Shown here one piece after another: positions 3,001 through 44,189 of a stretch of DNA of 64,000 nucleotides; position 1 is the first letter of the stretch, and every line of letters starts with the position of its first letter. The notes beneath the pieces were generated by a model. That model had not been told where the DNA came from, searched no databases, and was given only the letters and a program-made list of their open reading frames with translations. Source of the stretch: PVC group bacterium (GTDB lineage: Bacteria > Verrucomicrobiota > Kiritimatiellia > CAIKKV01 > CAITUY01); assembly GCA_945890715.1 (NCBI GenBank), contig CAMDCX010000002.1:11869-75868 (forward strand). The letters run 5' to 3'. The position numbers and the translations under genes are program-made.

Positions 3001-3603
3001 TATGGATACGATGCCCTGGGCCGGATGTGCCGGGTTACTGATGCGGCGGGTGGGGAAACAATCCTGGATTATGATCCCACTGGGAATGTGATTCAATCGG
3101 CGACTCTGAATCCCTTAGGAAAAGTTCTGAGACGCCGAAGTACGCAGTATGATTCCCGGAATCTCCCTATCCTTGCTTATGATTACTTGGGGAATGCTTG
3201 GCGGACTGACTATGATTCCAGTGGGCGGAAAACGGGGGAAGAGGATCCGCTCGGAAATCGGACGACAACCGGGTTTAACCGTTTCGATGAAATTGTGTCG
3301 GTAACCGATGCGCTGGCTCACCGCACGGAAACCCGGTACGACCGGTGCGGGCGGAAAGTGGAAGTGGTAAACCCTCTGGGACAGCGTACGAGATACCAGT
3401 ATGACCCCAACGGCAACAGAACAGCCGTCATTGATGATAATGGCAATGCCATGCTCTATGCTTTTGATGCTCTGAACCGGGTGTCCGAAATCAATCGCAC
3501 CATGCCATCGGTTCCGGCTGATGTTCTGAAGCGGGCGGATGTAAATGGGGATGGTCGGATTAATGGGGATGATGTGACCACCCTGGACGGGGGACTCCCA
3601 TGA
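1..3603 (+). CDS. RHS/YD-repeat protein, 5'-partial (continues upstream of window); long YD shell with no RHS core/DPxGL motif
   Basis: Frame 1 is open from nt 1 (TDALGQTATLEYDRFGNSIQATDPAGN...), so the listed Met at 112 is internal. There are dozens of YD repeats (YDxxGRxxxxTDPLGN...). The C-terminus carries a DVNGDGRINGDDV calcium-loop/dockerin-like motif. The stop overlaps the next start (ATGA at 3600-3603). Confidence 0.85.
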   Translation, partial: TDALGQTATLEYDRFGNSIQATDPAGNVEITRYDTNGVHSLSVRNKRGYETRYDYDGYGNCVRITDPCGFSRHASFNKVGWKESECDEAGVVSRFEYDRNGRLTACVKSAGTREEAITRFSYDGRGLPVEMMDSRGNREVTDYDATGRPTCLTDKLGGITLTDYDWDDNPVRIGDPLGQVAENFCDGRGNVILHFDRRGSATTVAYDGNNQPVSSVDAGGNRLQKTYDENGNLLAEKRQATGFPGCLPGEISEPVTVTYTYDALNRMTQKVIGAGRQDARVYTTDYDSSGRVIRETDPLGNSLATGYDSEGNRTNISLFDASGRLVSRELTFFDAANRPVTVIKGFGVVTATNWSDYDARGLKVSTCDGRGNKTLFSYDTHRRLISTTDPLGTVHWGNYDSLGNKVREREASGAITEYAWDAAGRLTNTVVGVGLSDARVSFTFRDRLGRVVRETDPEGYSLSWTYDAEGTVLTETNSLGYVKVFFPDAMGRVTNTVDEAGGQIGQALDGNGKLRRFTDKLGGVTVSDYDAYGNLVSLTDALGGQARWAYDGNDTKIRETDPRGLISSLFYDAAGRMTNKTAGVGLADVSSSRVVYDELGRAVRSFNPVGGCEILQYDVVGNCIARTDPRGAVTHYEYDALNRQTVTVDALGGKTSITYDDRGNSVSMTDALGGLSRSSYDAYNLKRSSTDALGNTTRYQYDRLGRLIATTDPLGGVESRAYDAAGNCVATVNKNGVPSFFAYDRLGRVTNTTDALGYHTRKTYDSLGNLLEAFDKRGNGMVYQVDKLGRRIAVTDPASNTLYFAYDAGGNKIQESMPSGRVTTSGYDGFGRLILKTVGTGDREARQTRLEYDSVGRLTRDIDPYGYALERQYDANGNTTNITDRRGYSTRMEYDELNRLTRTIDALGNSSSVMYDRLGRITGTTNRRGDTTHHSYDATGRLTAIQDAEGHITSNRYDKLGRLCEEMAPNGRRTLMSYDAVGQLTNKTVSGSGSESRNQSYGYDALGRMCRVTDAAGGETILDYDPTGNVIQSATLNPLGKVLRRRSTQYDSRNLPILAYDYLGNAWRTDYDSSGRKTGEEDPLGNRTTTGFNRFDEIVSVTDALAHRTETRYDRCGRKVEVVNPLGQRTRYQYDPNGNRTAVIDDNGNAMLYAFDALNRVSEINRTMPSVPADVLKRADVNGDGRINGDDVTTLDGGLP

Positions 3604-9600: not shown

Positions 9601-12600
9601 AACAATCCGGAACGGTGACAGTCTATGATGCGGGCAACCGCCCGGTTCGCAGGGTGAATGCCAACGGTGGTTCTGTGGTGACTGCCTATGATGCGTTGGG
9701 CAACAAGACGTCCTTTACGGACGAATTGGGGTATGTCAGTCGCTGGACTTATGCCCATGGGAAACGGCTTGAAGGATATTCCCTGCCCGACGGTACGGGG
9801 GTCACCCATCACTATGATGCCTTGGATCGTTTGGTAGAGGTGCGGGTAAATGGTACGGCGCAACAGGCGTATGCGTATGACGGGGTATCCCGACTGACGA
9901 ATTCGATCGATTACAACCAAGCTGGTTCGGCAGATGATAGTGTTGTGGCCTACGACTATGATGCTCTCAACCGGGTTGTTGAGGAGCGTCAAAATGGAAA
10001 AAGAATTCAACGCCAGTTTGATACGGGGGGGCACGCTGTGGCGGTGACTTATCCTTCCGGCTTTGTGTTGAAACGGTCATTTGACGCCAAGGGTCGTCTT
10101 GCAGGCCTAAAAAACGAGGACGGCACGACGACCTATTCCGCCTATGCTTATACACCCAATTCCCGAATCCAGACTATCACGTATGGAAACGGGGTGGTGG
10201 AAACGCATGGACTGGATTCCCGGGAGCGATTGCAGACGCTGTTTCAGCAGGGAATTCACTGTGATCTGCGGGCCACATTGGCGCGGGATCCCGGTGGGAA
10301 TGTGACGCTGTGCTCCCAAAACGGGGGCGCAGGGGATGTGTTCATGTATGATTCCCTGAGCCGGGTTGTAGCGCGAAAAAACCTGAGCAACGTGTTTGAG
10401 GAATCGCTCCGGTATGATGCTCTTGGAAATTGGTTGTCCACATCCAATCCGGTTGAAGGGTCTGTTTCCCGTTCGGTAAATGTCGGCAATCAGTATGACC
10501 AGATCGGGGCGCAATCGCTCCGGTATGATTTGAACGGAAGCCTGACTAATTGGAACAACCGAAATTTTATTTATGACTATCTGGCACGGCTTGTGGAGGT
10601 TCGGTCGAATGGACAGGTGATTGCCCGGTACCGTTATGATGCCGCAAATCGTCGTGTCGGCAAGGATACCGTTGCAGGTCATCAGGCCTACTACTATGAC
10701 GGGGATACCCTTATTGATGAATCGACGAATGAGGCCTGGACTCGAAGCACCATTCACGGGGGCACTTTGGATACACCGGTGGCCATGGTGAGCGGCGGGG
10801 CGACATTCTATTATTTGAGGGATTGGCGGGCTAATATCGCCGCTCTTATCGATTCAGGGGGAACTCCCGTTGAAAGCTACCAGTATTCCCTTTTTGGCCG
10901 GATGACGGTAGTGAACGCCGAGGAAAATCCGGTTCAGCAAAGCGGGTTCGGCACGATCTGGACCTTTGCCGGACGCCAGTGGGATGCCGAAACAGGGTTG
11001 ATGCACAACCGGAACCGGACTTACTCGGCTGAACTGGGCCGGTTCCTCCAGCGCGATCCTGCGGGGTATGTCGATGGAATGAATCTTTATGCCTATGCAG
11101 GAAATAATCCGTTGCTGTTCTCAGACCCGTATGGATTGTACCGGTGGAGTCATGGTGCGCTGGATAGCCGTGTTGGCGACTGGATATTCGAGCAATACGG
11201 ACAAGTTCGTGAAATGGAGCGGCAGCGACGGGAGTATGAGGAGGCGCTTCGCCAGGCCGAGGAGGAGCGTCAGCGAATTGAACAGGAAAACGAGTATGCG
11301 GCTCGTGCCTTCAACCAGTACAAGAACGCGCATGTCGGCGAAATCAAGACTATGGTCGGGAAGTATCGCCACTTGGGGGTGAACGAGAACGAGGCGGCAC
11401 AGCTTCTCATGAGCGGGATCAGCTCGATTCCCAGGCTCGGGGCAACGGTGGGACCCAATGACACCCGGCGAGGCTGGTGGCTGGATTATTACCTGCGCGG
11501 CGGCCAGGTCAATACCACCATGCGTGACGAGATGCGCAGCGCGGGGGTCGGGACGGTGGATGAGTTTTTTGCGAAGACCTCCCAAAAGGAAACCGCATTG
11601 CGGGATAAACGGAAGGCTACGCAGCAGCAATATACCATGGCGGCCGTGGCGATTGTGGCCACGGTGGTAACCTGCGGGGCGGGTGGGGTCTTGGGGGCCG
11701 CGTTACTCGGAACCGTGGGGGTCACGGCAACCACCGCGTCGTTCGGCGCCTTTGTTGCAGGGGCAGTAGCGATTCAAGGGGTGTCGGCCGCCGCCACGAC
11801 GATGATCTCGCATGGCAATCTCAGTGACTTCGCCCAGTCATGGGCGATCAACTCTGCAGCTAGTGTGGCGGGGTATGGGGCTGGTTATTCAGCGGCCAAG
11901 GCGGGTGCGGATCTCAATATCCAATTGGCGACCCAATCGGCCGCGAGCACCTTTGTGTCGTCAGGCTCCCGTGCCACATTGGCGGGTGAGGGCTTTAAAA
12001 ATGTGTTCCGGGATACGGCGATCAGCTTTGTGGCCGGAGGCATGATGGGAACATTCATGAAGGCGGAGGGAACTGGTTCGGTGCCTGCCAATTTTGGTGA
12101 GTATGTGAATAATGGGGCATCATCCTCGTTCGGATATCTACATTCCCCGCTTTCAGGAGGGGTTCAAGGTTCGCTGCATGCCGCGGTATATGGTGGAAAT
12201 ATGGTGGAGGCCTTTGGCGAGGGCTCAATTTCAAAGGAGGCCTTGACGAGTTATCTGATGGCTTCAGAAGTGTCGCAGGCTGCGAAATGGATGTCGGATC
12301 AGCTTGTCTCAGCACTTCCCAATGCGCCACGTCAGACGGCTCAATCCCGTGAATGGAAGGCGACTCCGGCGGCCGTCCATTCGGATAATTCGGTTAAGCG
12401 GATGGAGAACTCACAATCCTGGCAATCCCGGATGAGGAATGCGGCGATTGGAAGTGTGGTCACTGTGGCCAGTCATCTGGAGGAAATCATCGTGGCACCA
12501 GCCCGGGCGGTCTCGGAAATCTATTCAACTATGACGGCAGAGTCCTGGAAGATTCGGTCGCATGTGATCAATCCGTTTTCAAGAAGTTTTGCGGGGTATC

Positions 12601-29859: not shown

Positions 29860-32061
29860 ATGCACGGCCAGCTTAACCCCTTAACTCCTAAACCCCTGAT
29901 CCCCTCCGTAAAGACGGCGCTGGTTCTCGGTCTGGGTTCCAGCGGGGACGCCGCAGCGAGACTGCTGCGGCGGCAGGGGGTGGCGGTCACTCTTTTGGAT
30001 GCCGGCTCGGGCGCGGCTCTGGACGCGAAGGCGCGTGTCTTGAGAGAGGCGGGATGCATCGTCAGCCTCGGATCCCGCGCCTTGCCGGAAGGCGACTACG
30101 GCCTGGTTGTGGTGAGTCCCGGAATACCAATGGAGGATCCGTGGATTGTGACCCTGACGCAACGCGGGATTCCGGTCATTTCAGAGCTCGAGCTTGGGTG
30201 GCGGTTTTGTCGCAGTCGCGTTCTCGCGGTCACCGGATCCAATGGAAAAAGCACGCTGGTAAAACTATGCCGTGAGGCGCTTGAACAAGATGGCTTCACG
30301 GCGGTCGCCGGCGGGAATTACGGAATCCCCCTTTCGGTGCTGGTGTGCGAGGAGTCGGCGCCGGACTGGATTGTGGTGGAAGTGAGCTCCTTTCAACTTG
30401 AGACGGTGGATCAGTTCGCCCCCGATGCCGGCATTCTTTTGAACCTCAACCCCAACCACCTCGACCGGCATGGCTCCATGGAGGTGTATTTGAAACTGAA
30501 GGCCCGGCTTTTTGCGCGGATGACGGGCGGGCAGGTTGCCGTGATGTCCGAGACGGCGCCGGGGATCATCCGGGAGGCGATTCCCCGGGAAGCGCATCGG
30601 GCGACTTTCGGGCTATCGGAAGCCGCCGCCTTCCGCTACTCACGGGGATTTATTACCGGGCCTGGGTTGGTGCATCCCGTTTCCGTTGAGGGGACTGTTT
30701 TTGACAATGAAGTCATGGGGGTAACGGCGGCGGCCTGTGTGGCGGCGCTGGTCGGAGCCGGGCTTTCCCCGGAGGGTGTGACGGCGGCAGCGCGCCACTT
30801 TGAGCGGTTGCCCCACCGCATGCAAACGATCGCGACGGTTCGGAATGTGACGTTTGTGAATGACTCCAAGGCAACCAATTTGGCGGCGCTGTCGGCCGGC
30901 CTGGGAATGGCGTGCGGACCCGTGCGCCTGATCGCGGGGGGCTTGCTTAAGGAAAAAGACTTGGATTCGGTGAAAAATAATCTGGTCAAGCGGGTGCGCG
31001 GTGTCTACATTATCGGGAAATATTCGCAGGTCATGGCTTCCGCCTGGAAGGACGCTGTCCCCTGTGTGATATGTACGGATTTGAAAGAGGCCGTTCAGCG
31101 GGCGTGGAAAGATGCCCAAGCGGGTGAGTGGGTTCTTCTTTCACCGGGCTGTGCGAGTTTCGACCAGTTTAAAAGTTTCGAGGATAGAGGCGAACAGTTT
31201 ATCAATATTGTAAGAGACATTGAAAAAGGAGACATGATTGTGAAAAAGGCGCGGATGATGGGGTCGATGGTGGTGGTGGCAGGTGGTTTAATGTTGAGCG
31301 CGGGTTGCGGAACAACCAAGGTTGATTCCTCCGCAGTCGAACCGGTGGTGATGCCGCCGATGACGGAAACGGTTGCCCCGGTGATCAAAGTTGAGGAAGT
31401 GAAGCAGCCGGTTGCCGAAGTTCAAACCAAGACCTATGTGGTCAAGTCAGGCGACAGCATCGGGCTCATTGCCAAGCGGTTCAAGGTTCCGTCCAAGGAT
31501 ATCCTGAGCCTGAACAAGATCACCAATGCAAATAAGATTCGTATTGGCCAGAAATTGACACTTCCGGGTTATGTTGATCTGGGCGCCCCGGCTCCGGCCA
31601 AGACGGCCAAGGCCAAGAAGGTCGTCAAAGTGGCCCTCAGTGGTGACGTCTATGTGGTGAAGTCCGGTGATACACTGGGACACATTGCGGTGGCTCATAA
31701 GACCACGGTTCGCGCGATCAAGCAGGCGAACGGCCTGACGAGCGACAAGGTGCACATCGGCCAGAAGCTTGCGCTTCCCAAGGGTGCGGCAAAGGTTGAG
31801 AAGGCTCCTGCGGTGGAGGGTGCGGCTCCTGGGGAGACTGCGGTTCCGGCGGTGGACGGTACGGTGCCTGGTCCGGTGGAGGTCGTTGCGCCTGCTCCCA
31901 AGTCGAACGAAGTGCTGCATGTTGTCGAGCCTAATCAGGATTTGAGCTCCATTGCCATGATGTACGGAGTTCGAGCCGAGGAAGTGATCCAGTTGAACAG
32001 CCTGTCGTCTCCCGATGTAAAGGTCGGACAGACATTGAAAATTCCGCCGCCTGCTGAGTGA
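29860..32061 (+). CDS. murD: MurD (UDP-MurNAc-L-Ala:D-Glu ligase) reading in frame, with no stop, into a LysM lipoprotein module
   Basis: The MurD part (about 458 aa) shows VLGLGSSGDAAA, VTGSNGKST and SPGCASFDQFKSFEDRGEQF. It continues without a stop into MIVKKARMMGSMVVVAGGLMLSAGCG plus three LysM repeats. Confidence 0.8.
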   Translation: MHGQLNPLTPKPLIPSVKTALVLGLGSSGDAAARLLRRQGVAVTLLDAGSGAALDAKARVLREAGCIVSLGSRALPEGDYGLVVVSPGIPMEDPWIVTLTQRGIPVISELELGWRFCRSRVLAVTGSNGKSTLVKLCREALEQDGFTAVAGGNYGIPLSVLVCEESAPDWIVVEVSSFQLETVDQFAPDAGILLNLNPNHLDRHGSMEVYLKLKARLFARMTGGQVAVMSETAPGIIREAIPREAHRATFGLSEAAAFRYSRGFITGPGLVHPVSVEGTVFDNEVMGVTAAACVAALVGAGLSPEGVTAAARHFERLPHRMQTIATVRNVTFVNDSKATNLAALSAGLGMACGPVRLIAGGLLKEKDLDSVKNNLVKRVRGVYIIGKYSQVMASAWKDAVPCVICTDLKEAVQRAWKDAQAGEWVLLSPGCASFDQFKSFEDRGEQFINIVRDIEKGDMIVKKARMMGSMVVVAGGLMLSAGCGTTKVDSSAVEPVVMPPMTETVAPVIKVEEVKQPVAEVQTKTYVVKSGDSIGLIAKRFKVPSKDILSLNKITNANKIRIGQKLTLPGYVDLGAPAPAKTAKAKKVVKVALSGDVYVVKSGDTLGHIAVAHKTTVRAIKQANGLTSDKVHIGQKLALPKGAAKVEKAPAVEGAAPGETAVPAVDGTVPGPVEVVAPAPKSNEVLHVVEPNQDLSSIAMMYGVRAEEVIQLNSLSSPDVKVGQTLKIPPPAE
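31234..32061 (+). CDS. LysM-repeat lipoprotein (3 LysM domains), possibly translated independently from an internal start
   Basis: AAGGAG at 31226-31231 precedes ATG 31234 and GTG 31240. Signal peptide plus lipobox LSAGC. LysM repeats YVVKSGDSIGLIAKRF..., YVVKSGDTLGHIAVAH..., HVVEPNQDLSSIAMMY.... Confidence 0.5.
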   Translation: MIVKKARMMGSMVVVAGGLMLSAGCGTTKVDSSAVEPVVMPPMTETVAPVIKVEEVKQPVAEVQTKTYVVKSGDSIGLIAKRFKVPSKDILSLNKITNANKIRIGQKLTLPGYVDLGAPAPAKTAKAKKVVKVALSGDVYVVKSGDTLGHIAVAHKTTVRAIKQANGLTSDKVHIGQKLALPKGAAKVEKAPAVEGAAPGETAVPAVDGTVPGPVEVVAPAPKSNEVLHVVEPNQDLSSIAMMYGVRAEEVIQLNSLSSPDVKVGQTLKIPPPAE

Positions 32062-33227: not shown

Positions 33228-35663
33228 ATGATGACGGATTCCAAAAAAACTCCGGATGTTGAGGTGATGGGGCAGGAGAAATCCGAAAAGACGGATAATA
33301 AGACGATTGTGCCAACCCGGTTCGTCTTTCCCAATACCCTGCCGATTCTGCCGTTGCTGAACCGGCCGCTGTTTCCCAAAATGATGGTTCCGTTGAGCGT
33401 GGATGATGACGTGTTGAAGGCCATGCTTGCCGCCACGGCGGCTTCGTCCTCCAAGTTCATCGGTTTGGTACTGGCTCGAAATGAGGGCGAGAGCGAGGAG
33501 CGCCATATCCCCCGGAAAGCGGCGGATCTTTATTCGGTGGGTGTCATCGCAGAAATTCTCCAGACCAGCCAGCCTTCTCCGGAGGGGCCCATCCAGATCA
33601 TGGTCGGCATCCTGGAACGCTTCAAAATTACCCGGGTGGTGAGCGAGGATCCGCATGTCGTGGTTCATGTCGATTATATCGTTGAGACGGAGATGTCTGA
33701 GAATGATGAGCTTCGCGCCTATTCGCTGTCCATCATCATGGCAATCAAGGAACTGCTTCAGCTCAATCCGCTTTTCAAGGAGGAGCTTAACCTTTTCCTG
33801 AGCCGGTCGAATATCAAGGAACCGGGACGCCTGGCGGATTTTGCAGCCGCCATGACGACCGCCGCCGGGAAGGATCTCCAGGAGGTGCTCGAGGCCTTCA
33901 GCATCCGCGTCCGGATAGAGAAGGTACTGCTGCTGCTCAAGAAGGAAATCGACATCTCCCGTATCCAGGTCAGGATCAACAAGAGCATCGAGGAGAAGGT
34001 CTCCAAACAGCAGCATGATTTCTTCCTGCGCGAGCAACTCAAAGCGATCAAGAAGGAACTGGGTCTCGTCAAAGAGGGCAAAGAGACGGAACTGGATGAG
34101 TTCAAGGAGCGGCTGACCAAACTGACACTGACGCCCGAGGCGAATGAGCGGATTACCGAGGAAATGAATAAACTCGGCATCATGGAGCCCCATTCTCCGG
34201 AATTCACGGTCAGTCGGAATTATGTGGACTGGCTGACATCCCTGCCCTGGGGCGTGTTCAGCAAGGATAGCTATGACATCAAGAAAGCTGGCGGGATCCT
34301 GAACAACGACCACTATGGGTTGGAAGATGTCAAGGATCGGATCCTGGAGTTCCTGTCTGTGGGTATTCTCAAGGGGAATATTTCCGGATCCATCATTTGT
34401 TTTGTCGGGCCGCCCGGAGTGGGCAAGACCTCCATTGGCCAGTCCATTGCGCGGAGTATCGGGCGGCAGTTTTACAGGTTTTCCGTCGGGGGAATGCGTG
34501 ATGAGGCTGAGATCAAGGGACACCGTCGGACCTACATCGGTGCCATGCCGGGGAAATTTCTTCAGGCCATCAAGGTCTGCAAGACCCAGAACCCGGTGAT
34601 CATGCTTGATGAGGTGGATAAGATCGGGGCGAGCTATCACGGTGATCCCGCCTCAGCCCTCCTGGAAGTACTGGATCCCGAGCAGAATAAGGACTTCCTG
34701 GATCATTATCTGGATGTCCGGTTCGATCTGTCGAATGTGCTGTTCATCTGTACGGCCAACCAGCTCGATACGATCCCCGCGCCGCTGCTGGATCGCATGG
34801 AGGTGATCAAGCTGGCTGGATACATCCTGGAGGAGAAGGTTCAGATTGCCCGGAAATTCCTGATTCCCAAGCAATTGAAAGCGCATGGAATGACGTCGAA
34901 ACAGCTTGAAATCAATGACGCGGCACTTCGGGAGATTATTGACGGCTATGCCCGGGAGCCCGGTGTGCGCGGGCTTGAAAACCACATCAAGAAGATCTGC
35001 CGAAAGGCGGCAAAACAGATTGTGGAGAATAAAACTAAGCGGGTGACCGTGACGCTCAAGACGTTGAATGAGTATGTCGGAAAGCGTCTTTTCTCGGAGA
35101 CGGATCCCTACAAGAAGCCGCGGGTCGGTGTTGTCATGGGGCTGGCGTGGACGTCACTGGGTGGATCCACCCTGTATGTCGAGGCGACTCGGGTTGAAGC
35201 CAAGAACGCAGGATTCAAGCAGACCGGACAACTGGGCAGCGTTATGGTGGAATCATCAGAAATTGCCTACACGTATGTGCGATCCCTTCTGAACGGGGTT
35301 GTCGGAGCCAAGGAGTTCTTTGAGAAAAACTTTGTTCATTTGCATGTGCCTGCAGGCGCCACGCCCAAAGACGGTCCCTCCGCCGGGATCACGATGGCCA
35401 CGGCCCTGTATTCATTGGCGTTGAACAAGCCCATCCGGGCTCACTACGCCATGACTGGTGAATTGACCCTTACCGGCTTTGTCCTGCCCATTGGCGGGTT
35501 GAAGGAAAAGACCATTGCCGCCAAACGTGCCGGGGTCGTGGATCTCATCTTTCCCTTCGAAAACAAAAAGGATTTCGATGAGCTTCCCGCTTACATTCGT
35601 AAAGGCTTAAAACCGCATTTTGTCCAATCCTTCAAGGATGTGGTGAAGTTGTGCTTTGCGTGA
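33228..35663 (+). CDS. lon: ATP-dependent Lon protease (LonA)
   Basis: LON N-domain, Walker [10 protein letters not shown], and catalytic [15 protein letters not shown]. Confidence 0.93.
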
Positions 35664-37909
35664 AGAAAACTATTTTCGGGGTAGGGGGAGTGCTGATCGC
35701 GGGGGTGACGATCGGGCTGATGGTGATGGTCAGGCTTAATCCGGAACCGTCCTCCGGCTTCACAGGATCCCGAAGTTGCCGGAGCTGTCATGAGAGCTTC
35801 TATCAGAAGTGGTCAACCTCGCACCACGGACTGGCCATGCAGCCTTATACCCCCGCCTTTGCCCGAACCAATTTGCTCCCCCAGACGGGCGCGATTTCGA
35901 TTGGCGGGAAAGCCTATCGCTATCTCATGGAGCGCGGCGTGGTTCGTGAAACCGGACCGAGAGGAACCCGCGATTATCGGATGGTTCATGTCATGGGCGG
36001 GAAGAATGTCTTCTATTTCCTCACGCCGTTGGATCGGGGAAAACTCCAGGTCTTGCCCCTCGCGTTCGATGTGAAGAAGAAAATCTGGTATGACAATCCG
36101 GGAAGCGGGGTCCGGCATTTCGCTGGACGGCAGGATGAGGCGCTGGATTGGACGGACCGGCTCTATACCTTCAATACCGCTTGTTTCGGGTGTCATGTGA
36201 GCCAGCTTGCCACCCGCTATGATATCACCAAGGATGCGTATCACACCATCTGGACCGAGCCGGGTATCAATTGTGAAACCTGTCATGGGCCGGGTGATGA
36301 GCATGTTCGTGTCTGCCAGGCGGCGCCCACCAATCAGCCGCCCAAGGATCTGAAGATCATCAGCACCACGGGCATGACCCCTGTGCAACGCAATGATCTT
36401 TGCGCTCCTTGCCACGCGAGACTATCGCCTCTTACGGGAGCTTTTACGCCTGGTAATCGTTTTTTCGACCACTTTGACCTCGTGGGTCTGGAGCATCCGG
36501 ATTTTTATCCTGACGGACGTGATCTGGGGGAAAATTACACCATGACCGGATGGATGTTGAGCCCCTGTGCTCGGAAAGGAACACTTGATTGCCTCCACTG
36601 CCACACCTCGAGCGGCCGGTATCGCTTCTCCGGAGCCGACGCCAACAAGGCCTGTAGCTCCTGTCATGAGGCTCGCGTTAAGGAAGGATCCGCCCATACT
36701 CATCACGAACCCGGCTCCAAGGGAAGTGAGTGTGTGTCATGCCATATGCCTACAACCTCCTTTGCCAACATGCGCCGCAGTGACCATTCTATGCGGCCTC
36801 CCATGCCCGAGTCAGCCATCGCCTTCGGGTCAACACTGTCCTGCCTGAATTGCCACCCCGACAAGACGGCCGCCTGGGCTCTGGATGAGGTTCGGGAGTG
36901 GCATCCGGAAAGCAAGGTGGCGGCCCCCACTCTGTATTGGGCAGGACTCATTGAAGCGGCGCGTCGGGAGGACTGGACACGCCTTCCGGAAATGCTTCAT
37001 TACATTCAACGGACAAACCGGGAAGAGGCCGTATCGGCCGCGTTGCTACGTCTTTTCGGGACTTGTCCGGATGCGGCCAAGTGGCCGGTGTTGAAGACGG
37101 TGGCGCTGTCGGATCCTTCGCCCTATGTGCGTGCGGCCGCGGTTGAGGCGTGTCAGGGGAACTTGGTGCCTGATGTGGTGGCGGTGTTGCTGAAGGCGGT
37201 TCGGGATGAATACCGGCTGGTTCGTGTGCGGTCAGCTCTGGTGCTGGCGGCATTGCCACGCGAAAGTCTGGGCGTTGGGGATTGTGCGGCGCTCGACAAA
37301 GCGACGGCTGAACTGGAAACGTCGCTTCGTATCCGCTCGGATGATGCCGGAGCCCACTATAACCTCGGAAATTATCATGTGGCGCGACGTGACGTCACCA
37401 ATGCCCTGGGCGATTATGAAGCCTCCATTCAGTTGCGGGGCGATTTTCTGCCGGCACGGGTCAACCTGTCCTCATTGTTGAACTCGTTGGGTCGGAACGA
37501 GGAGGCGGAGCGGCACCTTCGCGAGGCCGTGCGCCTTGCCCCCAGCAATGCCGCAGTCCGCCTCAACGTTGCCCTGTTGCTGGGCGAAGTCGACCGGTTA
37601 TCGGAAGCCCGTTCGGAATACCTGAAGGTGCTTCAACTCGAGCCCACGAATGCCGTGGCCGCGTACAACCTGGCCGTTATTGCGGGGGCCTCCAGTCTTG
37701 TGGACGCGATCCGGTGGTCTGGCAAGGCGACGGCGTGGCGCCCTCAGGAACCCCGTTACGCCTACACGCATGCCTATTATCTCATGATTGCGGGAAACCC
37801 CCTGTCGGCAGCGACGGTTTTGCAGGAACTTCTTGCGAAAAATCCCGGATATACGGAAGCCCGTCAGCTGTTGCGTGAATGCCAGAGGGCGGCGGCGAGC
37901 CGTCCTTGA
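35660..37909 (+). CDS. Octaheme c-type cytochrome fused to HEAT-like and TPR repeats
   Basis: Eight CxxCH motifs (CRSCH, CFGCH, CETCH, CAPCH, CLHCH, CSSCH, CVSCH, CLNCH). N-terminal TM/signal [22 protein letters not shown]. The C-terminal half carries HEAT-like (DPSPYVRAAAVEA) and TPR repeats. GTG start at 35660 (or 35651) overlaps the lon stop. Confidence 0.8.
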   Translation: MKKTIFGVGGVLIAGVTIGLMVMVRLNPEPSSGFTGSRSCRSCHESFYQKWSTSHHGLAMQPYTPAFARTNLLPQTGAISIGGKAYRYLMERGVVRETGPRGTRDYRMVHVMGGKNVFYFLTPLDRGKLQVLPLAFDVKKKIWYDNPGSGVRHFAGRQDEALDWTDRLYTFNTACFGCHVSQLATRYDITKDAYHTIWTEPGINCETCHGPGDEHVRVCQAAPTNQPPKDLKIISTTGMTPVQRNDLCAPCHARLSPLTGAFTPGNRFFDHFDLVGLEHPDFYPDGRDLGENYTMTGWMLSPCARKGTLDCLHCHTSSGRYRFSGADANKACSSCHEARVKEGSAHTHHEPGSKGSECVSCHMPTTSFANMRRSDHSMRPPMPESAIAFGSTLSCLNCHPDKTAAWALDEVREWHPESKVAAPTLYWAGLIEAARREDWTRLPEMLHYIQRTNREEAVSAALLRLFGTCPDAAKWPVLKTVALSDPSPYVRAAAVEACQGNLVPDVVAVLLKAVRDEYRLVRVRSALVLAALPRESLGVGDCAALDKATAELETSLRIRSDDAGAHYNLGNYHVARRDVTNALGDYEASIQLRGDFLPARVNLSSLLNSLGRNEEAERHLREAVRLAPSNAAVRLNVALLLGEVDRLSEARSEYLKVLQLEPTNAVAAYNLAVIAGASSLVDAIRWSGKATAWRPQEPRYAYTHAYYLMIAGNPLSAATVLQELLAKNPGYTEARQLLRECQRAAASRP

Positions 37910-38035: not shown

Positions 38036-39613
38036 ATGAAAAAAGTTCTGATTCCGACCAAGCTCGACAAAGTCGCCCATGAGATTCTCAAGGCCAACGG
38101 CCATTACGAGGTTCATCAGGATGACGGCGGTGATGTGGTGGCGCTGGCCGCCAAGCACCCGGACGCCTATGCCCTGATTGTCCGTAGCGAGGCGGTTACC
38201 GCCGAGATCATGGACAAGCTTCCCCTGCTGAAGGTTGTGATCCGTGCGGGGGCAGGCTACAACACCATCGACATCAAGACGGCCCGGAAAAAAGGCATTG
38301 ATGTGATGAATACCCCCGGCGCGAATTCCAATGGCGTGGCCGAGGAAGTGATCGCCCTGATGCTGGCCGATGCCCGTCACGTGATCAAGGCCGATGCCTC
38401 CTGCCGCGCTGGCGATTGGGAGAAGAAGGCGTTCATGGGGCGAGAAGTGGCCGGAAAGATCGTGGGCATTGTGGGTCTCGGCAATATCGGGCGCCTGGTG
38501 GTAAAACGATTGTCGGGATTCGACTGCAAATTTCTGGGCTATGATCCCCTGATTTCCGCCGAGCGGGCGGCGGCCATGGATGTGGAATTGGTTGATCTTG
38601 AAACGTTGTTCAGTCGGGCGGATTATATTTCCCTGCACATCCCTGAAACCCCCGAAACCAAGAAGCTGGTGGGCGTCAAACTTCTGAGTCTGATGAAGAA
38701 GGGGGCGACCATCATCAACTGCGCCAGGGCGGGTGTGATTGATGAGGATGCCTTGCGCAAAACCAAGGCGGAAAAGGGGTTGCGATTCCTGAATGATGTC
38801 TACCCTAAGGATGAGGCCGGGCCGAAGACGGTTGTGGATATAGCCGATATCATGGTTCCCCATCTGGGCGCCAGCACGAAAGAAGCGAACGCCATGGCGG
38901 CTCGTCGATCAGCCGAGCAGTTGATCGAGTTGGATGAGAAGGGGGTCACATCCTACATCGTCAACCGCGATATTCCAGAGGGCTTGGACGAGGCCTATTG
39001 TATGCTGGCCAATACCATTGCCCGTGTTGCCCTCCATGTCATGGGGAAGGACGCAAACCTGAAACAGATCGAGACCAGTTGTTACGGTTCGCTTAAGCCC
39101 TACGGTGATTGGCTGATTGTTCCGGTGGTCTCTGCGCTCTGGAACGAATTCGACCGGTCCATGGATTCCAAGGCGGCGCAGCATTTCCTGAAAGGGCGCG
39201 GAATTGACTACCAGAATCGTGAGACGGATGCGAAGAAGGGGTTTGCAAATTCCATGACGGTGGATCTGACTGGAAGCGTTGATGTGTCAACCTTGCGGCA
39301 GGTGAGCGTTCGCGGAACCGTGGCCGAGGGCACCATCATGATTTCCCGGATCAATCAGTTTGAGAAACTTTATTTTGAGCCGAGCGGGCATGTGGTCTGT
39401 TTCCAGTACAAGGATCGGCCGGGCGTGGTGGGTCATGTGGGGGCGGCTCTGGCGGATGCCAGCCTGAACATCGAGGATGTCCGGCACTCACATCATCCCC
39501 AGACCGATCAGTCCATGGCCATCTTCAGGCTCAATGCTCCGGCTCCAGCCGCCGTGATTCAGAAGATCGCCCGTGAAATCAAGGCCGTTATGGCCTTCGG
39601 TGCCACCCTGTAA
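38036..39613 (+). CDS. serA: D-3-phosphoglycerate dehydrogenase (long form with ASB and ACT domains)
   Basis: 2-hydroxyacid dehydrogenase motifs (GIVGLGNIGRLV, NCARAG, HLGAST); 525 aa with a C-terminal ACT-like segment. Confidence 0.88.
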   Translation: MKKVLIPTKLDKVAHEILKANGHYEVHQDDGGDVVALAAKHPDAYALIVRSEAVTAEIMDKLPLLKVVIRAGAGYNTIDIKTARKKGIDVMNTPGANSNGVAEEVIALMLADARHVIKADASCRAGDWEKKAFMGREVAGKIVGIVGLGNIGRLVVKRLSGFDCKFLGYDPLISAERAAAMDVELVDLETLFSRADYISLHIPETPETKKLVGVKLLSLMKKGATIINCARAGVIDEDALRKTKAEKGLRFLNDVYPKDEAGPKTVVDIADIMVPHLGASTKEANAMAARRSAEQLIELDEKGVTSYIVNRDIPEGLDEAYCMLANTIARVALHVMGKDANLKQIETSCYGSLKPYGDWLIVPVVSALWNEFDRSMDSKAAQHFLKGRGIDYQNRETDAKKGFANSMTVDLTGSVDVSTLRQVSVRGTVAEGTIMISRINQFEKLYFEPSGHVVCFQYKDRPGVVGHVGAALADASLNIEDVRHSHHPQTDQSMAIFRLNAPAPAAVIQKIAREIKAVMAFGATL

Positions 39614-39631
39614 CGGCGCAGACGGAAAGAG

Positions 39632-39930
39632 AAGACTGACCACGGAGGAGACGGAGGGTTGAGGGAGAGGAAGAGAAGGAAAATGTTTACGGCATTTTAT
39701 GCGGCGGGAGTACCCGCCACATAAAATGCCGCAAACACCGTCCCCGGAGGAAGAGCAGACGAGGAAGGTTTTAATCGTGCGAAGCGCCACTGGAGTGGCC
39801 TGCTTTTCCCCTATTCCTCACGGGAGGTGTTTTGCGATTTTTCAAAATGGTGTACCCGCCATTTTGAAAGATCGCAAAACATTTTCTTCCTCTCCCTCAA
39901 CCCTCCGTCGACTCCGTGGTAGATCGTCTT
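39632..39930. repeat. ~300-bp nested palindromic element (outer ~50-nt imperfect inverted repeats enclosing two long hairpins)
   Basis: Outer arms 39632-39688 and 39877-39930 pair with one 6-nt indel and a few mismatches. Hairpin 1 is 39691-39730 (17/18 bp, loop AGTA). Hairpin 2 is 39829-39880 (21/22 bp). Both hairpins contain the identical decamer GTACCCGCCA. Confidence 0.85.
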
Positions 39931-41770
39931 ATTCCGCTTCGGGGAAGAGCATGGAATTGCTGAATTCGAGGTGGAAGTCGGGGTCGAGCGATAGATCGAC
40001 ATGGCGGACTTGTCCGACTACCCGGGCTGCGTAGTCTTTTTCCTGAGTTGAAAGCAGAACCCGCTTGGCTCCAAAGGATGAGGTGTTGCCCACGAAGCGG
40101 ATCTTGTCGCAGGGGATGGGCGGTAGCATGCCAATGCGGCGGGCATGATTCCGCCGGATGAAATTGCCGAAGCCGCCCGCCAGCAGGATGGCCCCCAGCT
40201 GTGAGGCCTCAAGCCCCGCCATTTTCAGGAGAATGTTGATTCCAGCTCGAATGGCGGCATTGGCCAGTTGCAACTCCCGGATGTCGCGTTGATAAAGAAA
40301 AATGGGGGAGCCGGTGGCTGATTCTGTTTTGGGGACGAGTAGAAAATGGGTTTCCCCCTTGTCCGCCACCAGTCGGTCACGCAGCGCGGAGGGCAGTGTT
40401 GCCGGAATCTCATCGGGCGGCAGAATCCGACCGGTGACATCCAGAATCCCGACCCGCAACAGCTCTGCCGCGATGTCAATCAGACCCGTTCCGCAGAGAC
40501 CGGCCGGCTTTGTGTTTCCGATGACGTTGAGTTTGACGTCCCCGTCGAGGATGACTTTCTCGATGGCACCACTTGTTGCCCGCATGCCATTGGTGATACG
40601 GGCGCCCTCAAAGGCCGGGCCGGCTGCCACGGAGGTGGCCAGCAGTAACGAGCCGTGTTTCAGGACAATTTCCCCGTTGGTTCCGATATCCACCAGAAGG
40701 GTGGGTTCCGTGGTGCGGTCGAGGCGGGTGGCGACAATGCCGGCTGTGGTGTCGCCCCCGACAAATCCCCCGATCTGCGGGAAGACGGTGATTTTGGCGC
40801 AGGGATGGACATGAAGTGGAAGATCCCTGGCGGTAAATTCGAGTGCATCCCGGAAGGCAGGGGTAAAGGGGAGTTCCCCCAGCGCCGAGGGATCAATTCC
40901 ACAGAGCATTTGCTGCATGGTGGTGTTCCCGGCGAAGACGACCTCATAGACGGACAGGCGGCTGATGCGGGTTTTCCGTTCCAGTTCGTCAATGATCCGG
41001 TTGATTCCGTCCAGAATAGCCGACTGCAGTTGCATCAGTCCGCCCTTTTCACCCCGGCATTTTTGGATTCGCGAGATGACGTCATCTCCGAACGAGGTTT
41101 GTGGATTGACCCGTGCGGCGACCGCGATATCGATTCCTGTCAGGAGATCCACCAGGGTTCCCACCAGAGTGGTGCTGCCAATGTCAAAAGCAATTCCATA
41201 GCAAGAGGATGAGGTGTCGCCGGGTTCCAGGGCGATTACATCCTGATCCGCTTGGACGACAGTCAGGAGGCCGTTGGAGGAACGCAGGACATTCGGCAGG
41301 GATTGGAGCGCCAAAAAGGTCAGTGGCACTGAGACTCCTGCAGCCTGAAGGCGTTCGAGATCGGAGCGGGTTTCGTGAGGGGAGAGAGGCGGAATTTGAA
41401 TGACTGTTTTGCGGACGCGCGGGTTGACGTCACGCGTCTCGCCGGTGTCACCGGTCAGGATTTTCTGATGGGTTTGAAACAGGGAGTTTTCCGGGATTTC
41501 GATGGTGATCGGGCCCGTAATGCGGGCTAAACAGGCCAGGCGGAATCCCTCCTCGGTGCGAGCTTTTCCAAGAGCCGTGAGTTCCTGTTCCGTTGCCGGG
41601 CACTTTCCGTTTCGGATCAGGATGATACATTTGGCGCATTTTCCCGTTCCACCGCAGGGGGTGTGAATGATGAATCCAGCCAGGGCGGCGGCCTCAAGAA
41701 TGACGGTTCCGGGCAGGGCGTGAACGATCCGTCCGGAGGGCTGAAAGATGATTTTAACTTCCTTGCTCAT
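39929..41770 (-). CDS. 2Fe-2S ferredoxin + ASKHA ATPase fusion (RACo / corrinoid-activation-like, DUF4445-type)
   Basis: N-terminal plant-type ferredoxin pattern (HTPCGGTGKCAKCIILI...LACLA) followed by an actin-like ATPase fold (GIAFDIGSTTLV, LLVDIGTNGEI). The ATG at 41770 overlaps the upstream stop (ATGA). Confidence 0.7.
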   Translation of the reverse strand: MSKEVKIIFQPSGRIVHALPGTVILEAAALAGFIIHTPCGGTGKCAKCIILIRNGKCPATEQELTALGKARTEEGFRLACLARITGPITIEIPENSLFQTHQKILTGDTGETRDVNPRVRKTVIQIPPLSPHETRSDLERLQAAGVSVPLTFLALQSLPNVLRSSNGLLTVVQADQDVIALEPGDTSSSCYGIAFDIGSTTLVGTLVDLLTGIDIAVAARVNPQTSFGDDVISRIQKCRGEKGGLMQLQSAILDGINRIIDELERKTRISRLSVYEVVFAGNTTMQQMLCGIDPSALGELPFTPAFRDALEFTARDLPLHVHPCAKITVFPQIGGFVGGDTTAGIVATRLDRTTEPTLLVDIGTNGEIVLKHGSLLLATSVAAGPAFEGARITNGMRATSGAIEKVILDGDVKLNVIGNTKPAGLCGTGLIDIAAELLRVGILDVTGRILPPDEIPATLPSALRDRLVADKGETHFLLVPKTESATGSPIFLYQRDIRELQLANAAIRAGINILLKMAGLEASQLGAILLAGGFGNFIRRNHARRIGMLPPIPCDKIRFVGNTSSFGAKRVLLSTQEKDYAARVVGQVRHVDLSLDPDFHLEFSNSMLFPEAE

Positions 41771-42729
41771 GGGCCGCGGCTTTTGGAGGAGGCTTTCATC
41801 AGCCACTGGCCGCGTTCAAATCCCTGCCCTTCGACGGGTTTTGCGTAGGAAACCTTGTCATCAACCTGGATAATCCTGACGGTTCCTATTTTGGTTCCGG
41901 GAACGAAGGTCAGAATATCACCGGTGGTGGGGTCGGTTACCGGTTCTGCCGGGCCCCGGACTGTGTACTCGGTATCGACCCGGAAATCCCGGTCTTTTCC
42001 GCCGTTGACGAAAAGAATGCCATTCCGGAGGCAGCTCACCATCGGGCGCCAGCGGGTTTCAGGCATATCCCGGCTCAGTTGCTTGACTCCGCCATAAATG
42101 GCGCGGGCCGTGGCCCTGCCTAGCGGAGTTTCAAAAAAGATATCCCCTCCGAACGAAACGCCCTCGTAGGAGGCCTTGACGAAGGCCTCGCTGGTTCGAA
42201 CGATTCCCGCGCTTTGGACGGCACTCAGGATTTGGCCGGTCTCCACATCCACGAGAGTGAGGGTGAGCGCTACGCGGGCGGTATGGCTGCGACCGAGCAG
42301 GAAAAGAGTGCGGAGAAATGAGAGGGAGAAACTGCTCCCGCCTGTATGGGAGAAATCATTCACCACTCCGCGAATCAGGTATTGCGCATTTTTCATGCGG
42401 CCGAGCTGGGTTTTTCCCTCCGGCCGGAAAAGCCCGCTCTGTTGACGGCTCAATTCGCCTGATATTTTTTCAAAATGTTGTCGTTCAACAACGACAAAAT
42501 TACGCGACAGAACCAGTTCCGAAACCAGGAGATCCGCCATGCCGTCGCCCAATTTCCATTGTCCGTCAAACCCGGCGCGGTTGTCGAAGGAGGTCACGGC
42601 CACTACCGGAGCATGCCGTTCTTCCGGGAGAGGGGGAATCGAATCCACCAGGGTCATGTTGCATCCGGCGAACAGAAGCCCGAGGGCAACGCTCACCATG
42701 GCTTTTTCAGGTGCTTTCATTGAAGTCAT
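41767..42729 (-). CDS. CsgG-family lipoprotein with C-terminal beta-rich extension
   Basis: Lipobox LLFAGC. CsgG-like core (VAVTSFDNRAG...LGDGMADLLVSELVLSRNFVVVERQHFEKI...AQYLIRGVVNDF...LTLVDVETGQIL). Extra ~90-aa C-terminal domain. Confidence 0.65.
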   Translation of the reverse strand: MTSMKAPEKAMVSVALGLLFAGCNMTLVDSIPPLPEERHAPVVAVTSFDNRAGFDGQWKLGDGMADLLVSELVLSRNFVVVERQHFEKISGELSRQQSGLFRPEGKTQLGRMKNAQYLIRGVVNDFSHTGGSSFSLSFLRTLFLLGRSHTARVALTLTLVDVETGQILSAVQSAGIVRTSEAFVKASYEGVSFGGDIFFETPLGRATARAIYGGVKQLSRDMPETRWRPMVSCLRNGILFVNGGKDRDFRVDTEYTVRGPAEPVTDPTTGDILTFVPGTKIGTVRIIQVDDKVSYAKPVEGQGFERGQWLMKASSKSRGP

Positions 42730-42802: not shown

Positions 42803-42832
42803 TTGATTGCATGGTTTTTTGCGTGGTATACA
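42803..42832 (+). promoter_or_regulatory. Candidate promoter for the hexokinase gene (extended -10)
   Basis: TTGATT (42803-42808), 18-nt spacer, TGgTATACA (-10 at 42827-42832). An upstream inverted repeat CCCGGGTAAA...TTTAACCCGGG lies in the divergent region. Confidence 0.35.
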
Positions 42833-42854
42833 GAGCCACCTGTTTGGAGGAAAA

Positions 42855-44189
42855 ATGAAATCATCATTGATTGAGACGCTTGACGGGCAATTTTCGGTTC
42901 CGCTCTCCTGTATGAGGAAAATCAGGAGTTTTGTGGCGAAGGAAATGGACGCCGGGCTCGCCGGCCGGAAAAGTTCGATTGCGATGCTGCCCGCTTATTG
43001 TGATGCTGCGAGCGGCCGGGAGCAGGGGCGTTATCTGGCGCTGGACCTCGGGGGCACCAATTTCAGGGTCATGCTGGTGGAACTTCCCGGTTTCGGGAAA
43101 CCGCCCCGGGTTGTTGCCGAGGCCAAGTATCGGCTGACCCCGGGACAGATCACCGGAACCGGAACCGCGCTTTTTGGGGTGATTGCCGGGTATCTCGGGA
43201 AATTTCTCAAGGATCATGCGATTACCTCTGAAATCGCGCTGGGGTATACCTTTAGTTTTCCCGTTCAACTACTGGGAATTGATGAGGGTATTCTCATGAA
43301 GTGGACCAAGGATTTTTCGGCGTCCGGTGTTGTGGGGAGGAAAGTCGTGGCGATTCAGCGTCAGGCGCTCGTTCAAAAAAAAGTGCGTAACGTGAACATT
43401 GTCGCTCTGGCCAATGATACCGTGGGGACATTACAGGCTCAGGCCGTTCTGGATCCGGATTGCGGAATGGGCGTTATTTTGGGAACCGGATTCAACATTG
43501 CCGTGCGTGTGGCCAGTCGACGGATCAGGAAAGAGACCGGCGCTTATCGCGGCAAAAGCATGATCATCAACATGGAGACCGGAAATTTCAATAAAGTCCT
43601 CCCCCGGAATCACTATGACCGGCGGGTGGATATGGATTCCGGGAATGTGGCACACCAGTTTGCTGAAAAAATGATTGCCGGGAAATACCTGCCGCAACTG
43701 GTCAGGTTGGTGGTGCTGGACCTGATCCGGAAGGATCATTTTTTTGACGGCCATGTGCCGACGGTGTTCTGCGACAAGGAATCGTTTAAAGGTTGGCATA
43801 TGGATGTATTCGAGGCTGGCTCCAAGGAGGCGGTTCAGAAACTTTCACAGGAATTGTTTGGCAGGGAGCTGACCCCGGTGGAGCGGCGGGTGATGGCCCG
43901 GGTGTGCCGACTGGTTTCGCGGCGTTCCGCCCGCATCGCGGCCGCGTTGATTATCGGTGCGCTGACGCGGTTGGAGCGCCGCTCGAAGCAGCGGATGGTC
44001 GTGGCGGTGGACGGCTCTCTTTTTGAGAAATATCCCGGTTACAGCCGGGTGCTGGCCGCCGCGATTCGTGAGTTGGCCGGTCCGGCAGGAAAAGGGATCC
44101 GTTTGAAATTAACCAAAGACGGTTCAGGAATCGGTGCCGCTGTCATTGCCGCTGTGGTGGCCTCAGGGAACACGAATTTGGTTCGGTGA
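42855..44189 (+). CDS. Hexokinase (eukaryote-type hexokinase family)
   Basis: LALDLGGTNFRVMLVEL signature, GFTFSFP-like YTFSFPV, and C-terminal DGSLFEKYPGY...DGSGIGAAV. The ATG at 42855 follows GGAGG. Confidence 0.85.
   Translation: MKSSLIETLDGQFSVPLSCMRKIRSFVAKEMDAGLAGRKSSIAMLPAYCDAASGREQGRYLALDLGGTNFRVMLVELPGFGKPPRVVAEAKYRLTPGQITGTGTALFGVIAGYLGKFLKDHAITSEIALGYTFSFPVQLLGIDEGILMKWTKDFSASGVVGRKVVAIQRQALVQKKVRNVNIVALANDTVGTLQAQAVLDPDCGMGVILGTGFNIAVRVASRRIRKETGAYRGKSMIINMETGNFNKVLPRNHYDRRVDMDSGNVAHQFAEKMIAGKYLPQLVRLVVLDLIRKDHFFDGHVPTVFCDKESFKGWHMDVFEAGSKEAVQKLSQELFGRELTPVERRVMARVCRLVSRRSARIAAALIIGALTRLERRSKQRMVVAVDGSLFEKYPGYSRVLAAAIRELAGPAGKGIRLKLTKDGSGIGAAVIAAVVASGNTNLVR

Follow-up and report, generated by a model that had tools for sequence, protein, structure and literature searches.

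Bacterial MITEs (miniature transposable elements with inverted repeats), such as Correia of Neisseria, ERIC/IRU, Nezha and MITEAba12, are non-coding sequences of ~0.3 kb (<~600 bp) bounded by terminal inverted repeats, which occur in many intergenic copies, are present in some strains and absent from others, are frequently co-transcribed with their neighbours and may affect RNA ends. The intervening sequences (IVSs) of 23S rRNA, found in Coxiella burnetii and Leptospira, are inserted in helix 25 or 45 and encode the four-helix-bundle protein S23p. At 428 nt, the Coxiella IVS has termini that pair in a stem of 28 bp; an AG-rich stretch (AGAAGA) and then three tandem heptamers lie ahead of an open reading frame (ORF) of ~120 aa; it is excised by RNase III, and its mobile origin has long been suspected but never demonstrated (PMC4990558). 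Repetitive extragenic palindromes (REPs), bacterial interspersed mosaic elements (BIMEs) and REP doublets forming hairpins (REPINs) lie just past genes as single or paired hairpins, and in a REPtron the gene of the enzyme, a REP-associated tyrosine transposase (RAYT), is flanked by the repeats. Free-standing homing endonuclease genes, some of the PD-(D/E)XK type (I-Ssp6803I, for example), move into the equivalent site of other genomes and not into many sites of a single one. Then, how does a nested palindrome that fills the 315-nt gap between the convergent genes serA and a RACo-like gene compare with these systems? The palindrome lies in a 64,000-nt stretch of contig CAMDCX010000002.1 from a PVC group bacterium; this whole stretch is called the window below, and L-numbers (L001, L002 and so on) denote the loci retrieved for comparison.

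The element in the window belongs to a dispersed repeat with a conserved order of parts, which is present or absent among near-identical strains and is, at this locus, far less diverged than its host genes; the repeat is one of freshwater Verrucomicrobiota and has moved recently. Some members of this family carry a gene of the GxxExxY type, which either replaces the core of the element or lies between two tandem element copies. The window element is probably a gene-less, MITE-like derivative of a GxxExxY-type selfish cassette with iterated inverted-repeat ends, where the family ends start with (TTC)ACCACGGAG and run through about three degenerate 8-9-nt iterations.

All the features of bacterial MITEs given above are shared by this element. 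However, no target-site duplication was detected here, the ends consist of iterated 8-9-mers, two internal covarying hairpins are present, one-hairpin and gene-containing variants occur at a single locus, and the gene-bearing relatives encode a 124-aa PD-(D/E)XK protein that is not a recognised transposase. In architecture, the nearest described element is the ORF-bearing 23S rRNA IVS. Like the gene cassettes described below, it is a selfish-looking unit of ~430-470 nt with one ~120-aa ORF, and like the window element it pairs its complementary termini over a long stem and has short repeats in tandem close behind the end. The differences are that the present element lies between protein-coding genes and contains no ORF, and that its relatives encode GxxExxY rather than the S23p protein of an RNase III-excised rRNA insertion; no rRNA match was found within the window. 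With the homing endonuclease genes, the gene-bearing relatives share a small nuclease gene amid housekeeping genes (fabD/fabG, radA, ABC transporter subunits) and patchiness among strains, whereas homing endonuclease genes have neither terminal inverted repeats nor gene-less derivatives.

The element is 282 nt long, from ACCACGG to CCGTGGT. Its parts and the two flanking genes are as follows.

38036-39613, + strand: serA, D-3-phosphoglycerate dehydrogenase, 525 aa, the left flanking gene (Pfam 2-Hacid_dh_C, 2-Hacid_dh and ACT).
39614-39638, no strand assigned: left junction, a 17-nt degenerate partial arm CGGCGCAGACGGAAAGA (like the inner ACGGAGGAGACGGA) followed by the purine-rich outer end GAGAAGACTG (direct repeat D3).
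39639-39688, + strand: left terminal inverted repeat, which opens with the terminus ACCACGGAGG, continues through the degenerate iterations AGACGGAGG and GTTGAGGGAG and closes in a tail rich in purines (inverted repeats I1 and I4).
39684-39737, + strand: hairpin H1, a 25-bp stem with the loop AGTA; ACATTTTCCT comes next on the - strand (repeat and terminator-consensus scans).
39738-39770, no strand assigned: left inner arm, CCGTCCCCGGAGGAAGAGCAGACGAGGAAGG, partly complementary to 39800-39827 (fold and family alignment).
39771-39799, + strand: asymmetric centre core, with GCGAAGC (39779-39785) and the small hairpin GCCAC-TGGA-GTGGC (39786-39799) (family alignment).
39800-39827, no strand assigned: right inner arm (fold and family alignment).
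39828-39881, + strand: hairpin H2, a 23-bp stem with the loop TGTACCCG; ACATTTTCTT comes next on the + strand (repeat and terminator-consensus scans, covariation).
39877-39920, - strand: right terminal inverted repeat, whose final part is CTCCGTGGT at 39912-39920 (inverted repeats and family alignment).
39921-39933, no strand assigned: right outer end AGATCGTCTTATT, akin to the family's AAATCTTCTCTT and covering the stop codon of the RACo-like gene at 39929-39931 (family comparison).
39929-41806, - strand: RACo-like gene with Fer2, RACo linker, middle and C-terminal domains (Pfam), the right flank, outside the element; as called on the source contig L001 it spans 39929-41770.

A preliminary description of this locus, made by a model from the sequence alone, had reported a nested palindrome with outer arms and two inner hairpins between convergent serA and RACo-like genes, and every pairing it described was recovered in the repeat search. 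The outer arms (39623-39677 / 39882-39936) are 55 nt long and 84% complementary; the 6-nt indel reported in them is seen as a 6-nt shift, after which the pairing resumes at 39667-39688 / 39877-39898. The complementarity extends a few bases beyond the coordinates first proposed, over the stop codon of the RACo-like gene. The arms of H1 (39684-39708 / 39713-39737) are 25 nt long and 92% complementary, and those of H2 (39828-39850 / 39859-39881) 23 nt and 96%. The decamer said to be shared by both hairpins, GTACCCGCCA, occurs in the window only at 39710 and 39852, that is, in the two hairpin loops, against 0.1 expected, and the 24-mer GACGGAGGGTTGAGGGAGAGGAAG occurs exactly once on each window strand (expected 0). 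Pfam bears out the flanks, with serA on the + strand and the gene with Fer2/RACo domains on the - strand. As RNA, the element folds at -201.9 kcal/mol on the + strand (z = -17.0) and at -197.9 kcal/mol on the - strand (z = -20.5), values that no shuffled sequence equals. It is without coding capacity: short ORFs alone overlap it, and none of them resembles GxxExxY by tblastn. The heptamer GCGAAGC, which forms an unusually stable DNA mini-hairpin, is also found in the variant terminus CCAGCGAAGCGGGTGGT of L008, L010, L011 and L013.

Copies of the element are numerous. When four freshwater metagenomes were aligned to the region, many short contigs matched parts of the element at 85-95% identity, 63-78% of the aligned contig sequence continued into unlike flanks, the depth over H2 and the right arm was 3-6 times that of the flanks, and several distinct left flanks met the element at 39626-39639. 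A scan of species-representative genomes with a 21-mer of the arm found copies in three metagenome-assembled genomes (MAGs), one of them labelled uncultured Verrucomicrobiota. A metagenome scan with the H1 pattern returned 6 further loci only. At least 13 distinct other sites in the three MAGs and the metagenomes carry copies, which are 70-98% alike; by BLAST and a profile hidden Markov model, full copies at unrelated loci are ~70-80% identical. The full copies keep one order: purine-rich outer end, ACCACGGAGG, degenerate ACGGAGG-like iterations, H1, inner arm, asymmetric core, complementary inner arm, H2, complementary outer arm and CCTCCGTGGT. The family profile scores 265 bits on the + strand of the window element and 103 bits on the - strand; therefore, the family has an orientation despite its palindromy. 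The terminus of the left arm is common to all family copies and to the GxxExxY cassettes of other phyla described below, and H1 is retained in other copies with compensatory stem changes. Ahead of ACCACGG, the family consensus is (A)AGAGAAGATTT. Most copies lie 0-22 nt past stop codons, often between convergent genes. In the 64-kb window itself, a profile built from 10 full copies found this copy alone, with no further one, whole or partial; the matches to TCACCACNGAG at 31636-31660, like a weak tblastn match at 31381-31470, fall in a MurD/LysM coding region and were dismissed as chance.

Immediately outside ACCAC...GTGGT, the two flanks tend to complement each other (TTC...GAA, and 6-12 nt in some copies), not to repeat each other directly. 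At L081:12487-12638, L082:12160-12260, L062:824-915 and L009:795-1066, these outside bases are complementary yet specific to the copy, for example ACATCC/GGATGT, GCAGATATC/GATATCTGC and GAAAAC/GTTTTC, which may reflect insertion at the centres of palindromic targets, or an inverted rather than direct target duplication. In addition, at L012:1250-1745 (- strand), an outer arm of the ACCACCCGCTTCGCTGG type encloses a second set of ends with a different iteron (TTCACCACTAATCTGCACTGATTCGCACTGATG), mirrored on the right, and this second set encloses H1, the core and H2. Either one insertion is nested in another here, or arm types have been exchanged as modules in one genome.

An empty site was found in a near-identical strain. 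The exact sequence of the SerA protein occurs on three contigs: L001 is the window's own sequence, and the two others, L002 and one JGI contig, have 8 nt between the stop codons. At the L002 junction, ...CTGTAA GAAGTGTC TTATTC..., the 8 nt of GAAGTGTC replace the 315 nt of the window, and the stretch at the left junction of the element is not present. The reading frame of the RACo-like gene has an identical stop codon at the filled and the empty site; the exact sequence of its protein returned no match. Over 1737 nt of serA, L002 and the window share 99.66% identity; the filled/empty difference of ~307 nt is therefore a recent gain or loss. It should be noted that the empty serA site, TAAGA-AGTG-TCTTA, is a small palindrome in itself. 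L002 (positions 1-1791, compared with window 34734-37877) also lacks the blocks 36342-37032 and 37225-37876 of the upstream gene for a 752-aa multihaem-cytochrome/tetratricopeptide-repeat protein, which is a strain difference or an assembly collapse of repeats.

The orthologous serA/RACo locus in a MAG (L007), with flanking genes 87-90% identical to those of the window, carries an element from which 80 nt including H1 are gone, by deletion between the 9-nt direct repeats GAGGAAGAG; the H1-deleted form recurs in DNA and RNA contigs from other samples. Over the 235 nt shared, the two elements are 97.4% identical (229/235), compared with 90.2% for serA, 86.8% for the RACo-like gene and 77.5% for third codon positions of serA. 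Together with the absence from the 99.7% identical strain, this low divergence fits an element much younger than the host split, gained at the same site or exchanged between lineages.

The position of the core is where gene-bearing members of the family differ from the window copy, which has a 90-nt core there. In L004, a 124-aa ORF lies between H1 and H2, flanked by inner inverted repeats and an AT-rich upstream stretch, and it encodes a GxxExxY protein (TIGR04256, E = 1e-40; PF13366 PDDEXK_3, E = 3e-41). L004, L031, L016 and L086 all have the order arm, H1, inner arm, GxxExxY, complementary inner arm, H2 and complementary outer arm, with the gene at the position of the core; in L004 and L086, inner arms border the gene. 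These loci are orthologous. The gene of L031 has the same orientation as that of L004, while in L016 and L086 it is inverted relative to these same flanking genes. At the same orthologous locus, L011 has a minimal 140-nt form composed of arm, one hairpin and complementary arm, in which the inner hairpin stem is the H2 stem of L086 and the outer stem is mismatched as for a junction of H1-left and H2-right, i.e., a chimera. L086 comes from the assembly ERZ27280308, which also holds the window's own contig, so that a gene-bearing member coexists with the gene-less one; no GxxExxY gene was found by tblastn in the window itself. Two more homologues (79% and 76% identical) at unrelated loci each lie between two complete, near-identical direct 300-nt elements (L019:2125-3209 and L025:2136-3204), an arrangement that would be expected if a circle had integrated through one crossover, or if the entire element had been duplicated in the manner of a giant target-site duplication. 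Campbell-type circle integration, which would explain these direct repeats, and integron attC sites, imperfect palindromes that directly follow cassette ORFs, were both considered but not adopted, since neither an integrase nor a recombinase came to light and H1 and H2 have different inner stems.

Cassettes of the same kind occur in other phyla. Homologues 65-69% identical, in Kiritimatiella glycovorans and other metagenomic contigs, sit in compact cassettes that have ACCACGGAG(N)CACGGAG(N)CACGGAG at one end and its complement at the other. One such unit, 470 bp long, separates the genes for the ATPase and the permease of an ABC transporter; in Kiritimatiella and other PVC bacteria the flanking repeat is ACCACGGAGNCACGGAGNCACGGAG. 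In K. glycovorans (CP010904, L036:2400-2680), the gene cassette is followed by two tandem 123-nt gene-less units, 99% identical, each made of a gene-less element and a 22-nt spacer. This species is cultured and has a complete genome, so the system could be studied there. At another locus, a gene-less element of 176 bp has 28-nt ends that are perfect. More distant homologues (32-48% identical) were found by tblastn against plasmids. The gene lies between radA and a gene for an FAD-protein in Bacteroides (flanking repeat TTCACCACAGAGGACGCAGAGGACACGGAG), between fabD and fabG in Sphingomonas (TTCACGCGAAGGCGCGAGGACGCGA), and between ade and manC in Bernardetia (AACACAGAGATAAGGAGAACCACAGAGA). In an automated test of 14 GxxExxY loci, nine had flanking inverted repeats, with scores of 18-44 against a shuffle maximum of <=12.5; in these nine, the gene sits in a cassette of ~470 bp that iterated inverted repeats of this kind delimit.

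The ends also occur in viral contigs. A scan with a 25-nt end found 33 loci with ~45 end pairs, nearly all gene-less, 63-224 nt long and with varied interiors, and the H2-flank pattern was absent from viral contigs. Since these viral elements lack GxxExxY, the end pair is the constant unit and GxxExxY is dispensable in cis. One viral element of 450 nt holds an unrelated 129-aa ORF, and the ORFs inside two viral elements had no Pfam match. Single viral contigs (L059, L060, L068 and other IMG/VR loci) contain 3-5 gene-less elements with ACCACGGAG-type ends, and some IMG/VR elements have internal AT-rich palindromes of their own.

The GxxExxY protein has many relatives, 5260 at E <= 1e-20. In an alignment of 29 sequences, three residues never vary, namely E28 in the GxxExxY motif itself, E78 and K80, and D68 hardly varies; this is the PD-(D/E)XK signature. 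The AlphaFold model is confident, with a pLDDT (predicted local distance difference test) of 94. The structures that match it best, Cas4 SSO0001, lambda exonuclease and restriction-enzyme-like domains, do so weakly, with TM (template modelling) scores of ~0.5. No sequence relative was found in the PDB, and PADLOC and PHROGs gave only marginal matches, to Cas4b and an endonuclease. PF13366 is listed as 'Unknown' in PMC3424549; the literature found on GxxExxY or PF13366 consists of passing mentions and such listings, and a search for PDDEXK proteins with terminal inverted repeats gave nothing relevant.

The hairpins are conserved as structures. Across 12 copies of H2, 94% of the cells of its 23 pairs are paired and 14 of the 23 pairs have changed on both sides, whereas none of 500 shuffles reached as high a covariation and no slid register came close. 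A terminator-consensus scan picked out H2 on the + strand, H1 on the - strand and the centre hairpin, with tails having 5 T in 8 bases, in total 4 sites versus 0.4 expected. Because ACATTTTCTT comes next to H2 on the + strand and ACATTTTCCT next to H1 on the - strand, the two hairpins look like predicted outward-facing terminators. In two metatranscriptomes, contigs of 657 and 818 nt with the H1-deleted variant start inside serA, cross its stop codon, the left arm and the core, and stop at 39820-39822, the foot of H2; consequently, the element is co-transcribed with serA. The preliminary description had also offered a structured non-coding RNA as an explanation, of which transcription within the 3' untranslated region of serA and hairpin covariation stand, while a free-standing RNA gene is not supported. 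No Rfam family matched the whole window at the gathering score, and over the element, at E <= 1, only generic miRNA-precursor-like hairpins appeared, far below threshold.

How could such an element move? An enzyme recognising the iterated ends would insert it, or remove it, as one unit; for this role the GxxExxY nuclease acting in trans is the leading candidate, with one such gene in the same assembly. Since both hairpins are palindromic, H1 and H2 repeat each other in direct and in inverted orientation at the same time, and host recombination between them would delete or flip the centre, which would explain the minimal one-hairpin form and the two gene orientations at one locus. Each hairpin, with ACAUUUUCUU after it, would act as an outward-facing terminator that insulates the neighbours and makes the spot between convergent stop codons a tolerated home. 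In gene-bearing forms, H1 and H2 would end the cargo transcripts in either gene orientation, and in the window, read-through from serA and the RACo-like gene would end only after crossing the element.

Several points weigh against this reading of a gene-less derivative of a GxxExxY cassette. The role of GxxExxY as the mobilising enzyme is that of a candidate, and the protein could be mere cargo, since no GxxExxY gene was found in 307 kb of viral contigs with ~45 gene-less end pairs. Five of the 14 sampled loci, the most distant ones, have no significant flanking repeat. No direct repeat that could be a target-site duplication, one of the signs looked for after the preliminary description, was found around the window copy or 57 other end pairs, and the left junction of the window copy carries an extra 17 nt. 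At the serA/RACo locus, insertion is indistinguishable from precise loss, and the low divergence of the element could instead mean purifying selection for a host function. The point at which the RNA contigs stop in common may mark a 3' end, or the hairpin may have broken the assembly there; moreover, every copy was obtained from metagenome assemblies, in which contigs are broken or distorted by palindromes.

The same facts bear on other explanations. A classical MITE moved by a conventional DDE or HUH transposase that recognises the ACCACGGAG ends, with GxxExxY and other small ORFs as passenger cargo, would agree with the far greater number of gene-less than gene-bearing elements, with the lack of GxxExxY within 5 kb of the ends in viral contigs and with the unrelated 129-aa ORF, without Pfam match, in a 450-bp element; a 124-aa PD-(D/E)XK protein also has no known precedent as a transposase. 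However, no transposase gene was seen between such ends in ~90 retrieved loci, and the nine repeat-flanked loci among the 14, sampled by protein alone, have GxxExxY between the ends in four phyla. The repeat sequence drifts along with the protein lineage, and the catalytic residues are conserved, so we regard this explanation as unlikely. A host-selected RNA or transcription element, for example a bidirectional terminator, an mRNA-stabilising 3' structure or an RNase III site for serA/RACo whose repetition is secondary, appears improbable. It would account for H2 (+) and H1 (-) fitting a stem plus T-rich tail, for the covarying stems, for co-transcription with serA, for conservation far above synonymous sites between two lineages and for the position of most copies 0-22 nt past stops, often between convergent genes. 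Nevertheless, the 99.7%-identical strain does without the element and has 8 nt between the stops, the orthologous copy in L007 does without H1, the family flanks or contains a selfish-looking gene and matches no Rfam entry, and covariation in a DNA palindrome can also come from hairpin-templated repair.

The mobile, MITE-like part of the preliminary description thus stands on the empty site and on many copies in relatives with different flanks, whereas its REP/BIME-like part does not hold in the strict sense. A REP/BIME- or REPIN-type element, spread by a RAYT (an IS200/IS605-like tyrosine transposase) acting on single-stranded H1 and H2, would suit extragenic hairpins that are modular, single or paired, and just past genes, and the REPtron parallels GxxExxY flanked by elements; the loops also share the asymmetric (G/A)GTAC(C/T)CGCC in the same orientation, which suggests strand-specific recognition of folded DNA. 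But REPs are 20-40 bp long, with a GTAG/CGTC tag and an HUH tyrosine transposase, while the hairpins here are 48-54 nt, begin with (A/G)TGTT... and have no such tag (criteria in PMC3733652: 20-40 nt), no RAYT gene was noticed in the retrieved loci, and the long iterated terminal repeats are also found on hairpin-less cassettes. This explanation is therefore highly improbable.

In sum, an odd intergenic palindrome becomes a documented mobile repeat family of uncultured freshwater Verrucomicrobiota, whose repeats interrupt metagenome assemblies and may determine the 3' ends of mRNAs. In addition, a widespread protein family with no assigned function gains a concrete and testable context, in short cassettes with conserved iterated ends amid housekeeping genes. 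It is possible, though we advance this tentatively, that GxxExxY proteins (TIGR04256 / PF13366) are the nucleases of an unrecognised class of compact (~0.45 kb) mobile elements with iterated inverted-repeat ends, which is spread across phyla and phages, has abundant gene-less derivatives and is architecturally akin to IVSs. If the nuclease acts on the ends, the cassettes would be among the smallest self-contained mobile elements known, and they could explain the source of ORF-bearing rRNA IVSs, a question that dates from the early 1990s. Should GxxExxY prove to be mere cargo, the ends still define a superfamily of repeats that is absent from the literature searched. A full-text search for the repeat sequences gave nothing relevant, the literature on Verrucomicrobia with MITEs or palindromic repeats was mainly a REP survey and MITE papers, none describing the present repeat, and for S23p cassettes outside rRNA only the Coxiella IVS paper was relevant.

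Two other features of the window may be mentioned. At 42807-44189 (+ strand), a 460-aa protein has both hexokinase domains (PF00349, E = 1e-52; PF03727, E = 3e-58); hexokinases of this eukaryote type are uncommon in bacteria. At 1-9700, there are long direct-repeat families, YD/RHS-like and calcium-binding (GDGDG-type), with a periodicity of ~800 nt, which point to a very large repetitive surface or toxin-like protein.

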